A stretch of 4,104 nucleotides of DNA from a virus (taxonomy: Duplodnaviria; Heunggongvirae; Uroviricota; Caudoviricetes): IMG/VR virus record IMGVR_UViG_2671180620_000027; one strand, written 5' to 3'. A program made the position numbers and the translations under genes. The notes under the pieces are model-generated. The model saw only the letters and a program-made list of their open reading frames with translations, made no database searches and had not been told where the DNA came from. This document shows positions 712 through 2,366 of this stretch, one piece after another. Within the stretch, counting starts at the first letter, position 1. The number at the start of each line of letters is the position of its first letter.

Positions 712-926
712 AACCCCCCCCCATTTTCACAATCAGCAACAAGAATATTTTTAGCGTCATTCAGCGACCGCGTTGCGATGTATCGGATACATTCCAGGGC
801 GAACTGTGTCCGGTCTTTCTGTTCTTCTCCCTGCGCAAGCTCTGCAGTGCATTCAATATCGATAAGCGCGTGCATCAGCGTAGTGAGCGCGGCGGCTGCT
901 GCGTCCGGTGTGGTTTTATTGCACAT
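684..926 (-). CDS. Hypothetical protein, 80 aa; C-terminus depends on G9 tract length
   Basis: Internal start of the 94-aa track ORF: ATG at 924-926 preceded by AGGAGG (plus-strand CCTCCT at 933-938) with a 6-nt spacer. Sequence MCNKTTPDAAAAALTTLMHALIDIECTAELAQGEEQKDRTQFALECIRYIATRSLNDAKNILVADCENGGGLCVMIVLIP. The ATG overlaps the stop of the upstream ORF (TAA at 916-918) in ATGTGCAATAA. The 3' end overlaps the next ORF by 28 nt. Confidence 0.5.
   Translation of the reverse strand: MCNKTTPDAAAAALTTLMHALIDIECTAELAQGEEQKDRTQFALECIRYIATRSLNDAKNILVADCENGGGLCVMIVLIP
714..722. repeat. Homopolymeric tract C9 (G9 on the coding minus strand) at a gene junction
   Basis: Direct count: positions 714-722 are nine consecutive C. 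On the minus strand the run is read as GGG GGG GGG (codons 722-714) in the 684-926 ORF and lies immediately upstream of the ATG of the 478-711 ORF. Confidence 0.9.
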
Positions 927-1476
927 GGCACACCTCCTGACGAATACGGGCGGCGAATACAGCAACACAACCGGACGGGCAACGGCTACGCGCTTCGCGT
1001 TCCGTCCAGGCGGTTACGTGGATGATTTGATGTTCTGACGCGCCAAAGATGATAAAGCGCCAGAGAAAGGCGGTTTGAGAATGTACAAGGGTAGGGATAG
1101 TAGCCATGTTGGCAGCCTCCTCAGTGTGGTTAAGATAACCGCCACCGGAAACGCCAATTTCGCTGGTGGCGGACTGTACAGGGTTGGCGTAACCGGACAC
1201 TGAAGAAACCGGCGCGGATTGCTCCGCCCCCGTACAGCCCACCATTGATAAGGTGTGACTATGCGGCACAAAAAAACACGCGGGGCGCGTGTTATGCGCT
1301 TCAGTTTTGCCCAGGACGCCAATCCCGGCACCCGTTTTATGAGGTGCGCGGGAATCATAGCTATTTTCGACACTGGCGATCAACTGGTTTTTTTCTCCGA
1401 TATTCAGGGCCAGAAAACGCCACACAAAGGCCGTTTGTGTGTGTACAAGGTGTGGTATATGATTTACGGCAACCAT
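916..1476 (-). CDS. Hypothetical protein with internal paralogous repeat (186 aa from ATG 1474-1476; alternative 63-aa product from internal ATG 1105-1107)
   Basis: This is the C-terminal part of the 409-aa track ORF. ATG at 1474-1476 is preceded by AGGAG with a 5-nt spacer. An in-frame internal ATG at 1105-1107 is preceded by a strong AGGAGG (1116-1121) with an 8-nt spacer. The motif IPHLVHTQTAFVWRF (1414-1458) recurs as IPTLVHSQTAFLWRF (1054-1098), with synonymous third-position differences in this frame. The true start is uncertain. Confidence 0.45.
   Translation of the reverse strand: MVAVNHIPHLVHTQTAFVWRFLALNIGEKNQLIASVENSYDSRAPHKTGAGIGVLGKTEAHNTRPACFFVPHSHTLSMVGCTGAEQSAPVSSVSGYANPVQSATSEIGVSGGGYLNHTEEAANMATIPTLVHSQTAFLWRFIIFGASEHQIIHVTAWTEREARSRCPSGCVAVFAARIRQEVCHVQ
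1054..1098 (-). repeat. Paralogous repeat copy B (encodes IPTLVHSQTAFLWRF)
   Basis: Codon-by-codon comparison with 1414-1458 on the minus strand: cca/cct, cac/cat, acg/acc and cgt/cgc are synonymous; T/S, V/L and H/T are conservative replacements. Confidence 0.7.
1414..1458 (-). repeat. Paralogous repeat copy A (encodes IPHLVHTQTAFVWRF)
   Basis: See copy B. Similarity continues into the flanking codons and the upstream SD-like GGAG. Confidence 0.7.
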
Positions 1477-1538
1477 AACGGCTCCTAGTTTACGTTGTTG
1501 GTTAGACGCCCCGTATGTGTTCCCAGCACTGCGGGGCG

Positions 1539-1566
1539 TTGATTTTTGTGTAATGGCAAGTACAAT
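1539..1566 (+). promoter_or_regulatory. Candidate rightward promoter for the RHH gene (TTGATT, 16-nt spacer, TACAAT)
   Basis: Hexamers read at 1539-1544 and 1561-1566. The predicted start at about 1573 falls inside operator copy 1. The -35 is weak, so this is tentative. Confidence 0.3.
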
Positions 1567-1610
1567 GGTAATTACCATGTAGGTATAGTAATGAAGGGTA
1601 ATTACCATGT
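1567..1610. promoter_or_regulatory. Two direct copies of GGTAATTACCATGT, each containing the perfect palindrome GGTAATTACC; candidate operator for the RHH protein
   Basis: Copies at 1567-1580 and 1597-1610, 30 bp centre to centre (about three helical turns). Copy 1 extends to the 14-bp palindrome ATGGTAATTACCAT (1565-1578). Copy 2 contains the ATG of the RHH gene (1607-1609). Confidence 0.5.
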
Positions 1611-1613
1611 CAA
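1585..1613 (-). promoter_or_regulatory. Candidate leftward sigma70 promoter for the small-ORF operon (TTGACA, 17-nt spacer, TACTAT)
   Basis: Minus-strand -35 TTGACA is the reverse complement of 1608-1613; -10 TACTAT is the reverse complement of 1585-1590; the spacer is exactly 17 nt. The predicted start near 1578 lies in operator copy 1, and copy 2 covers the spacer and -35. Confidence 0.45.
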
Positions 1614-1780
1614 CACCATTAGAAAAACGTTCGCCTCCATACCAAATGCGATTACCGGAAGACTTCAGAGCGCAGCTAGAAGAAGCAGCTAAGGCCGATG
1701 GCGACACATCTTTAGCCACTTGGATTAAACGCGTTCTCCGCAAAGAATTACAGCAACGCGGCATAGAACCCAAAGGATAA
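1607..1780 (+). CDS. Arc/MetJ/CopG-like ribbon-helix-helix DNA-binding protein, 57 aa; putative repressor of the divergent operon
   Basis: Own translation: MSTPLEKRSPPYQMRLPEDFRAQLEEAAKADGDTSLATWIKRVLRKELQQRGIEPKG, stop TAA at 1778-1780. It shows the beta-strand (YQMRLP), helix, G-x-T/S turn, helix pattern typical of RHH repressors. AAGGG at 1594-1598 is a possible ribosome-binding site. The opposite strand here is Cys/Ser/Arg-rich antisense-looking sequence. Confidence 0.7.
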   Translation: MSTPLEKRSPPYQMRLPEDFRAQLEEAAKADGDTSLATWIKRVLRKELQQRGIEPKG

Positions 1781-1837
1781 AAACTATCAGCGCCGTGGTG
1801 TGAGGTATTACGGCGCATTGCTATGCAGGACAACACA

Positions 1838-2011
1838 ATGACCGATAAAGAATTGACCAAAACATTATCACCGGCACGGAAAAGACGGCGCAGAAAGATA
1901 GAGCATGAATCAGAAAGATTCGCACCATGTGCTTTTGCCCTTGAGCAATTCCTTAAAGAGTACAGGGAAAAGCGCTCATTGCAGGTATGGCAACGAACTG
2001 AACCAGACTGA
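1838..2011 (+). CDS. Possible small basic protein, 57 aa, downstream of the RHH gene
   Basis: Internal start of the 62-aa track ORF: MTDKELTKTLSPARKRRRRKIEHESERFAPCAFALEQFLKEYREKRSLQVWQRTEPD. AGGA lies about 8 nt upstream of the ATG at 1838. It is on the same strand as the RHH gene and upstream of the plus-strand terminator. No family recognised. Confidence 0.3.
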   Translation: MTDKELTKTLSPARKRRRRKIEHESERFAPCAFALEQFLKEYREKRSLQVWQRTEPD

Positions 2012-2106
2012 TTGCATTGCCCACCAGCCTGATAGCGGCTATCATCCCCGTGCTTATGTTTGGGATCACATACACATAAGGCGCAGCGGGTTAATTGTTC
2101 AGAAAG

Positions 2107-2133
2107 GCGGCTCCATATCGGGGCCGCTTTTTT
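2107..2133 (+). terminator. Rho-independent terminator (plus strand) ending the RHH transcription unit, convergent with alpA
   Basis: Stem GCGGCTCC (2107-2114) pairs with GGGGCCGC (2120-2127), 8 bp with one G-U wobble; loop ATATC; followed by TTTTTT (2128-2133). Confidence 0.6.
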
Positions 2134-2159
2134 CGTGTTTGTCATATCTGTGATACCCG

Positions 2160-2366
2160 TTAAGCAGCCGTTCCGCGTGCTTCCTCTTCGCGTTCTTTCT
2201 GCCAGGACAACACATCATCCTCATACCATCCGCGACGGCGTAAACCAACGCGAAAACCCTGCGGAAATTCTCCGGCGTTGATCATGCTTTGCAGCGTGCT
2301 GTCTGCCTTGATGTGGATAATTTTTTTTACTTCCTGGCGAAAGATAATTTTTCTGATTGCTTCCAT
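2160..2366 (-). CDS. alpA: AlpA/Vis-family phage transcriptional regulator, 68 aa
   Basis: Track ORF MEAIRKIIFRQEVKKIIHIKADSTLQSMINAGEFPQGFRVGLRRRGWYEDDVLSWQKEREEEARGTAA. The core ADSTLQSMINAGEFP...GWYEDDVLSW matches the AlpA helix-turn-helix pattern as I recall it. Position next to a P4-type integrase is typical. Confidence 0.8.
   Translation of the reverse strand: MEAIRKIIFRQEVKKIIHIKADSTLQSMINAGEFPQGFRVGLRRRGWYEDDVLSWQKEREEEARGTAA

Follow-up and report, generated by a model that had tools for sequence, protein, structure and literature searches.

A repeated icd 5' end at both ends of a 360-base block of RNA genes in a PICI-like satellite of Escherichia coli O103

A repeated icd 5' end around RNA genes

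The DNA analysed here, a stretch of 4,104 nucleotides (nt) that we call the window (IMG/VR record IMGVR_UViG_2671180620_000027, Caudoviricetes), is 100% identical to positions 866371-870474 of Escherichia coli O103 RM8385 (NZ_CP028112), and many O26 and other Shiga toxin-producing E. coli (STEC) chromosomes are 97.6% identical to it. Judged by its genes, the window is part of a phage satellite that resembles the phage-inducible chromosomal islands (PICIs) and is integrated at a tRNA-Pro gene. It carries an icd-type gene, encoding a protein like the host cell division inhibitor Icd, the 5' end of which is present twice in one reading frame, with RNA genes lying between the two copies.

On the minus strand, a frame without a stop codon runs from the ATG at 1476 to the stop codon at 916-918 and would encode 186 amino acids (aa). 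A search of the genome contigs with this 186-aa protein returned a single locus. An earlier note, made from the letters of the window, had reported two copies of a 15-residue motif, IPxLVHxQTAFxWRF, 360 nt apart in this frame, and our analysis confirms this. The copies, IPHLVHTQTAFVWRF at residues 7-21 and IPTLVHSQTAFLWRF at residues 127-141, are identical at 12 of 15 residues, and the corresponding DNA (1414-1459 and 1054-1099) is 76% identical, with a distance from start to start of exactly 360 nt. When the upstream 123 aa were compared with the downstream 63 aa by BLASTP, 20 identities were found in 42 aligned residues (E = 7e-10). The Shine-Dalgarno (SD) sequence lay outside this comparison. 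The two copies differ at 11 nt within the 15-codon core, three at first, one at second and seven at third codon positions, which gives a Nei-Gojobori dN/dS of 0.08 in the motif frame, whereas dN exceeds dS in the other two frames. Purifying coding constraint, proposed earlier for the frame, is seen at the repeat copies and at icd, but not in the approximately 270 nt between them. Although the BLASTP alignment covers 42 residues and extends to residue 45, homology of the repeat beyond codon 28 was rejected because the DNA alignment shows that it enters the promoter and isrK. Independent proof that the copies are homologous comes from relatives with a single gene, the N-terminus of which equals the upstream copy and the C-terminus the downstream gene. 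The repeated motif is therefore homologous, and its copies mark both ends of a 360-base regulatory block, referred to below as the cassette.

Each copy has its own SD and ATG, as the earlier note had stated (Table 1). The downstream copy forms the first 25 codons of a nested 63-aa gene. The motif was not recognised when first noticed; a database search places it in the Icd-like family NF033153 at 57 bits, and phrog_1743 is matched both by the short protein of the window and by Kil of phage P4. By family membership, the downstream copy begins a complete Icd/Kil-like gene. The upstream residues 1-123 gave no match to NF033153, and the upstream copy is not a member of the family in its own right. 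In relatives that lack the cassette, the same 28 codons, differing only by NI versus SA, belong to a 66-aa protein that scores 64.6 bits on NF033153. The 186-codon open reading frame (ORF) as a whole matches phrog_29966 over its full length and also phrog_6928, and it is 96% identical to the clustered database proteins P0001 and P0002.

Table 1. Coordinates of features in the window
Feature	Position	Strand	Basis or content
186-codon open frame (eta-like long ORF)	916-1476	-	icd codons 1-28, RNA cassette read as codons, complete icd-like ORF
Nested 63-aa Icd/Kil-like gene	916-1107	-	NCBIfam NF033153, 57.1 bits (cutoff 25), residues 14-57; coding sequence in the NCBI annotation (PGAP)
Second SD, GAGGAGG, 8 nt before ATG 1107	1116-1122	-	Read directly
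Second C4 target set (b2 1151-1157, a2 1116-1127)	1116-1157	-	Complementarity and covariation
C4/CI-type antisense immunity RNA	1162-1249	-	Rfam RF01695, 77.6 bits (gathering score 45), full-length match 1-87
C4 a' loop and b' segment	1197-1208 and 1184-1190 (inside C4)	-	Three-way covariation with targets
isrK/seqA-type RNA	1271-1347	-	Rfam RF01394, 66 bits (gathering score 50)
isrK intrinsic terminator, hairpin and T-run	1275-1293	-	Terminator scan
C4 target sites a1 and b1	1299-1305 and 1316-1322 (inside isrK)	-	Complementarity, covariation
Predicted sigma70-like internal promoter TTGATC-18-TATGAT (equivalent of PLE)	1354-1383	-	Prediction; expected start of transcription at base 1 of isrK
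360-nt block present in window, missing in near-identical relatives	1035-1394	-	DNA alignment with L040, L043, L046, L054 and L061
Upstream repeat copy, first 28 codons (MVAVNHIPHLVHTQTAFVWRFLALNIGE) of icd-type gene	1393-1476	-	BLASTP against downstream copy; cassette-less relatives
First SD, AGGAG, 5 nt before ATG 1476	1482-1486	-	Read directly; conserved with leader in cassette-less relatives
Leader hairpin ACGCCCCG...CGGGGCGT	1506-1540	-	Upstream of first start; conserved in relatives
Promoter-like site TTGACA-17-TACTAT	1585-1613	-	Consensus match only; upstream of first start
Upstream continuation of frame	1477-2145	-	To ATG 2145, 14 nt after the alpA stop; 409 codons in total; antisense to two plus-strand genes
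Divergent unit	1607-2133	+	Ribbon-helix-helix (Arc/YlcI-like) gene 1607-1780, ORF62 1823-2011, intrinsic terminator 2101-2133
AlpA-like regulator gene	2160-2366	-	Phage_AlpA (Pfam) 17.9 bits, below threshold 21; PHROG excisionase/regulator families; PGAP: helix-turn-helix regulator

Between the copies lie two structured RNAs, of the isrK and C4 families, and a predicted internal promoter, none of which had been described in the earlier note. The -35 and -10 elements of the predicted promoter are conserved over 25 distinct cassettes while their flanks vary. The a' and b' segments of C4 are complementary to target pairs both upstream and downstream on the same transcript, and they co-vary with both pairs, with at least five specificity classes among the 25 distinct cassettes. 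Listed as b'/b1/b2, these are ACGCCAA/TTGGCGT/TTGGCGT, AGGCTAA/TTAGCCT/TTAGCCT, GTGAGAA/TTCTCAC/TTCTCAC, GTCCTAA/TTAGGAC/TTAGGAC and GTGGTAA/TTACCAC/TTACCAC. In the window a2 overlaps the SD of the downstream start, and among the cassettes it abuts or overlaps that SD.

The two starts were also examined for RNA structure. The region of the second start (1100-1165, minus strand) folds into a hairpin that pairs b2 with the SD, with a predicted free energy of -26.1 kcal/mol (z = -3.5; 2 of 200 shuffled sequences were as stable). With this fold, the start of the short Icd may stay inaccessible unless there is intervention by C4 or by ribosomes arriving from upstream. The first SD is unpaired in the centroid fold, by inspection it has no complementarity to a' or b' of C4, and the fold of its leader is unremarkable against shuffles (z = -1.3). 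In one relative (L043) the leader hairpin has a variant stem sequence in which pairing is still possible. A terminator-like hairpin within the upstream copy (1441-1421) was dropped as a candidate, its stability being that of shuffled sequence (z = -0.06).

If the sequence between the copies evolved as protein, variable positions would be expected to show the codon periodicity of icd. Variable columns fall 48, 47 and 52 at the three codon positions in the RNA stretch, without periodicity, versus 10, 11 and 22 in icd, where third positions are in excess. The Pfam domain PF10554 (Phage_ASH) matches residues 40-133 of the long ORF at 63.3 bits (cutoff 26), and these residues correspond to 1078-1359 on the minus strand, which is exactly isrK, C4 and the targets. 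Changes within the supposed domain follow RNA pairing, unlike those of an evolving protein domain, and PF10554 is therefore probably the conceptual translation of RNA genes. Going by these family matches and substitution patterns, the sequence between the copies is made up of structured RNA genes and a predicted promoter rather than a protein linker.

The 360-nt block in relatives

To place the window among its relatives we used 80 loci from viral contigs, which were gathered by alignment of the Icd-like protein only and are thus blind to what lies upstream. In approximately half of them icd is preceded, at constant spacing, by isrK and C4, as Rfam confirmed in 10 of 10 tested, and the remaining loci have neither RNA upstream of icd, again confirmed by Rfam in the 10 tested. 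Whether homologues are encoded as one gene or two had been raised earlier; relatives without the cassette carry one intact 66-codon icd (MVAVNHIPHLVHTQTAFVWRFLALSAGE/SQIIHVTAWTEREARS...). Its leader, SD, ATG and first 28 codons equal the upstream copy of the window except for the two codons at which NI replaces SA or the reverse (L040, L046, L054 and L061), and the equivalent of ATG 1476 is the start of the intact gene. Its last 38 codons equal the downstream gene of the window except at one codon. Because these flanks are near-identical and the gap between them is exactly 360 nt (1394 to 1035), the window can be read as icd codons 1-28, then a block holding the promoter, isrK, C4, the targets, the second SD and ATG and 25 codons of a second icd, and then icd codons 29-66. 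Both junctions of the block share AG^AA. This junction would be compatible with a block inserted in the window or deleted in the relatives, and does not by itself give the direction.

In other relatives the same cassette edge (...AAAAACCAG TTGATC...) is joined to different upstream partners. These include a longer icd fragment ending in ...SEQEARQ, a very short one (M[RL]NHTTHPQ...NK), and up to three Icd-like units in one frame. Separately, four loci (L025, L026, L037 and L047) have an extra C4 RNA downstream of icd, at about 1820-2024. In two of them, L025 and L037, a c4-a1b1 target element with a score that reaches the gathering threshold lies before this C4, and L047 has the downstream C4 only, with none upstream of icd. 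Where the cassette lies with respect to icd thus differs between loci.

Within loci that bear the cassette, the upstream copy shows three synonymous polymorphic sites and one allelic NI/SA block, with no insertions, deletions or stop codons, and its SD and ATG are intact in all type-A loci. Cassette-less alleles carry the same synonymous variants, an indication that the two forms recombine. In 24 of the 25 distinct cassettes the frame itself has no stop over at least the 143 codons that precede the second ATG, whereas the other two frames close within 4 to 91 codons. The sole closed cassette (L018) has a 1-nt deletion in isrK, so that a stop between the copies, which the earlier note had named as evidence against one continuous frame, is confined to this exception. 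Four different left junctions and one 3-nt insertion or deletion all keep the frame.

Known immunity systems and a proposed mechanism

In P4, eta is a long ORF in which the short ORF kil is nested (Forti et al. 1999, J Bacteriol 181:5225, as summarised in PMC10111431). According to that summary, a constitutive promoter inside eta gives the CI RNA, and CI brings about early termination; the upstream late promoter is the only one from which full-length eta is translated, in a manner coupled to the alpA homologue, and this translation prevents termination (PMC10111431). Matches to C4 and isrK have also been noted in the "Bro zones" of PICIs (PMC10111431).

We located these elements in the P4 genome (NC_001609), where isrK (8615-8692), C4, that is CI (8420-8507), and a nested 65-aa ORF beginning MATTLTPSHPEFVFVF... 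(8168-8365) lie in one minus-strand frame. P4 and the window share order and strand throughout, from the alpA homologue through the long ORF, internal promoter, isrK/seqA and C4/CI to a target where an Icd-family ORF of some 65 aa, nested in the long one, begins; in both, this short ORF forms the end of the long ORF, inside which lie the immunity RNA and its internal promoter. Rfam scores are comparable (C4, 74.9 bits in P4 and 77.6 in the window; isrK, 60.8 and 66), NF033153 is matched by P4 Kil at 76.1 bits and by the Icd of the window at 57.1, and P4 eta and the long ORF of the window both match phrog_6928. BLASTP of the Icd of the window against P4 Kil gave no match, the two being too diverged, so that the relationship stands at the level of families only (NF033153 and the PHROG profiles). 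There are further differences. The ATG of P4 eta overlaps, as ATGA, the stop codon of the AlpA homologue ORF88, and eta has no Icd-like N-terminal piece, whereas the proximal start in the window is the duplicated icd 5' end. The spacer between isrK and C4 is 21 nt in the window versus 107 nt in P4, and a divergent ribbon-helix-helix (RHH) operon lies between alpA and the module in the window, unlike in P4. The element also carries genes for a RepA helicase, the small terminase TerS and a capsid protein, and no Sid, Psu or delta is annotated in the 22 kb examined, again unlike P4.

A second precedent is the immI operon of P1 and P7, which Citron and Schuster in 1990 and Riedel et al. in 1993 are said to have described as c4, icd and ant; experimental support for the P1 C4 system reportedly came from Citron and Schuster and, in 1992, from Biere et al. 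The P1-like phage D6 (L084, 894-1374) resembles the window in having isrK (59 bits) and C4 (76 bits), the latter with a target element on its upstream side, and then directly an Icd-family gene (MATIPTPTHSEFIWRF...) with downstream targets in its start region. Unlike in the window, the icd frame of D6 is interrupted twice ahead of icd, by a stop between isrK and C4 and by a second immediately before the SD, and D6 has no long ORF and no upstream icd fragment. Since D6 has these stops despite homologous isrK and C4, the open frame of the window is not a by-product of the RNA sequences. The gene after icd also differs, being the antirepressor gene ant in the P1 type and not in the window.

In the Salmonella prophage Gifsy-1, the isrK small RNA and its terminator are followed by a translated orf45 that overlaps a processed C4-like RNA, STnc1160, and translation of orf45 across the C4-like region was shown experimentally to be necessary for downstream expression (PMC4825925). 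The nucleotides of orf45 are conserved and its amino acids variable (PMC4825925). Gifsy-1 differs from the window in that orf45 starts downstream of isrK, whereas the frame of the window starts upstream of the promoter and spans isrK too, and in that IsrK acts as an activator with an antirepressor gene downstream, whereas the downstream gene in the window is icd.

Given these parallels, we consider it likely that in the 186-codon frame an RNA immunity module of the P4 type is set inside a small icd/kil-type gene, and that the long frame would be translated after induction. By homology with P4 and P1, the quiescent element would make, from the internal promoter, which looks constitutive, an untranslated RNA that ends at the isrK terminator or is processed to C4. 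C4 would then pair with a2 and b2 and close the second start, leaving Icd off and the downstream replication genes off by polarity. Upon induction, transcripts from upstream, arising at the proximal promoter-like site (1613-1585) or by read-through from alpA, would contain the first start, a site that C4 does not match. Crossing isrK, C4 and a2/b2 in the open frame, ribosomes would prevent RNA folding and termination and open the hairpin over the second SD, and the outcome would be two products, a long one and a short one nested in it, comparable to Eta and Kil of P4. The repeat would then be due to a second icd 5' end that the cassette brings with it, and selection would hold the whole stretch in one frame. 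This interpretation draws on the location of isrK and C4 between the copies, the same order in P4, the shared matches to NF033153, phrog_1743 and phrog_6928, the covariation and the conserved internal promoter. It draws also on the contrast in codon periodicity between the RNAs and icd, the exact 360-nt difference, the preponderance of open frames, the stops in D6, the hairpin at the second SD and orf45 of Gifsy-1. Among three readings that had been offered for the locus, a long protein with a nested short isoform comes closest, in that the layout is homologous to P4 eta/kil; what it lacked was the immunity RNA inside the long ORF.

Several points weigh against this interpretation. Use of the promoters, processing of C4, use of ATG 1476 and the 186-aa product are predictions for this element, and the eta/kil precedent is taken from a secondary summary. 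The window Icd and P4 Kil are too diverged for a BLASTP match, as noted above, and unlike P4 eta the 186-codon ORF starts at its own SD, 684 nt from alpA. The frame is shifted in the L018 variant and in one database protein (P0095). Finally, conservation of the upstream copy could stem from a recent origin and recombination with cassette-less alleles rather than from selection in the cassette context.

These last points would fit an upstream copy that is a functionless leftover of illegitimate insertion or replacement of the cassette in icd, such that only the RNAs and the 63-aa Icd matter and the frame is open because the event was recent or because derivatives that lose the cassette have to stay in frame for a working icd. 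The brevity of the upstream copy, only 28 codons without a match to NF033153, is in keeping with such a scar, as are the mosaic upstream contexts (types A to E), the 4-nt junction microhomology typical of illegitimate events, the polymorphisms common to cassette-less alleles, the two frameshifted cases, and the fact that the long alpA-proximal frame differs from the icd frame in many loci. Nevertheless, the frame survives four left junctions, a 3-nt length change and all but one of the 25 cassettes; at least five RNA classes have changed loops and targets without acquiring an in-frame stop, although the other frames often contain stops; in-frame stops do occur in the homologous cassette of the P1 type; the upstream copy keeps its SD and ATG intact in all type-A loci; and the P4 long ORF is reported, in the summary cited above, to be translated and functional. 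Taken together, the open-frame data indirectly favour an eta-like role of the long frame over a pure recombination scar, which we regard as unlikely. The related suggestion of a decaying upstream copy is right in that only a 5' fragment of 28 codons is present, but the intact SD, ATG and frame and the almost exclusively synonymous polymorphism do not look like decay.

It is also conceivable that the 186-aa product is a functional two-part regulatory protein, in which a real folded Ash domain precedes an Icd domain. The PF10554 match at residues 40-133 would suggest as much. Several PHROGs labelled "transcriptional regulator/repressor" also match the long ORF, hundreds of database proteins named "Ash-like/Icd-like" cover the same frame, and lambdoid phages read the Ash stretch in frame with antirepressor ORFs. 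By score, the ORF of the window is a typical member of the Phage_ASH and "Ash-like/host cell division inhibitor Icd-like protein" families, but its Ash part is probably RNA-gene translation. That stretch coincides exactly with isrK, C4 and the targets, has no codon periodicity, and undergoes wholesale class changes as RNA pairing requires. In addition, the amino acids of Gifsy-1 orf45 vary while its nucleotides are conserved (PMC4825925), and the frame is interrupted in P1-type phages. A two-part protein is accordingly very improbable. That two complete icd paralogues in tandem were fused when an intervening stop was lost, an idea prompted by two motif copies with their own SD and ATG in one frame and by relatives such as P0009 and P0014 with two or three Icd-like units upstream, is scarcely credible: the upstream homology stops at codon 28, where the promoter begins, the window has no second icd C-terminal half, the intervening sequence consists of RNA genes, and the DNA alignment shows relatives differing by one precise 360-nt block rather than a gene-sized unit, so that two complete genes never existed here.

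The P4-type layout that we favour is already known in outline from P4 itself. What appears to be new is the duplicated icd 5' end, the precise in-frame presence or absence of 360 nt inside icd, and the long frame from alpA to icd described below. A literature search for Icd-like proteins or C4 in satellites, incomplete in its coverage, found no account of any of the three.

Neighbouring genes and the frame from alpA to icd

In the annotation of NZ_CP028112, the window belongs to a small island adjoining tRNA-Pro, the annotated genes of which (integrase, AlpA-like helix-turn-helix regulator, RepA helicase, TerS and major capsid gene) are all on the minus strand. Because the island carries these genes, we assign it to the PICI-type satellites; integrase, AlpA, replication and packaging genes in a small tRNA-gene island are what defines a Gram-negative PICI, and by annotation all are present. 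Between the AlpA-like gene and icd lies the divergent plus-strand unit, and alleles of its RHH gene and ORF62 recur in the related loci examined. Perfect ATGGTAATTACCAT palindromes are found at 1565-1576 and 1597-1608, with a partial third copy (all within 1552-1613). They overlap the -35 and -10 elements of the minus-strand promoter-like site (1613-1585) and the start of the plus-strand RHH gene, a layout that looks like an RHH-repressor switch over the icd operon of a PICI-type element.

The annotation of this region deserves comment. RefSeq/PGAP lists two minus-strand pseudogenes in 1138-2145, "ash family" and "Icd-like", both "incomplete", and leaves the plus-strand RHH gene and ORF62 (1607-2011) without annotation despite their PHROG matches, promoter-like site and strong terminator. 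Downstream of icd, a run of nine C at 714-722 (nine G on the coding minus strand) divides an apparent single gene into two ORFs, 684-926 and 478-711 on the minus strand, which correspond to positions 1-77 and 78-154 of the 154-aa phrog_2512 profile; PGAP calls the gene frameshifted. The run could be a site of slipped-strand phase variation or a sequencing error.

The open frame of the window does not begin at ATG 1476 but continues upstream towards alpA (Table 1). Over 1477-2159 it has no stop codon, versus 10 and 20 in the other minus-strand frames, and under a null model that keeps both plus-strand proteins and shuffles the rest, the probability of finding no stop is 0.00085. It is the non-genic parts (P = 0.004), rather than those that overlap genes (P = 0.18), that give this signal. 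Related loci in which the upstream alpA was located show the same tendency: nearly all have an open frame of 187 to 577 codons that starts between -70 and +92 nt of the alpA stop, and mostly this frame either reaches the icd stop in phase with icd or closes 11 or 28 nt short of the icd ATG, a distance suited to translational coupling. The translation of the upstream continuation has no PHROG match.

Two simpler explanations of the 409-codon frame were rejected. A shadow cast by the opposite-strand genes would not account for all of it, since the lack of stops is unremarkable where genes overlap (P = 0.18) but not in the non-genic parts (P = 0.004). Those genes cover only part of the interval between alpA and icd, about a third in the window. 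Conversely, a real long minus-strand ORF facing spurious plus-strand ORFs is contradicted by the promoter-like site, strong terminator and RHH and PHROG matches of the plus strand, set against a minus-strand translation that matches nothing. We also observed that the wobble positions of the long frame coincide with those of the antisense plus-strand genes. A bolder proposal, which we put forward tentatively and with more doubt than confidence, is that these enterobacterial satellites keep one frame from the alpA stop to the end of icd open purely for the transit of ribosomes across the antisense repressor operon, the promoter and the two RNA genes. What matters would be translation itself, as protection of the induced transcript against Rho and C4, and not the peptide. 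The cassette would be a movable insert, in frame and equipped with an icd 5' end of its own, and the repeat would follow from this.

The locus is a very common one, and our analysis corrects how it is read: thousands of "Ash family" and "Icd-like" annotations appear to be translated RNA immunity genes, or a frame with a possibly irrelevant product, and NCBI pseudogene calls such as those at 1138-2145 of the window appear to fall under the same misreading. The existence of the same element with and without the 360-nt cassette, together with that of at least five co-varying C4/target classes, offers a natural comparison for the effect of the cassette on satellite immunity and induction. If the frame is indeed kept for translation itself, the principle of P4 eta would extend to PICI-type satellites and to sequence that is antisense to real genes, and the frame from alpA to icd, which spans 409 codons in the window and as many as 577 from stop to stop in relatives, would provide a testable example of an ORF selected for the passage of ribosomes and not for its protein.

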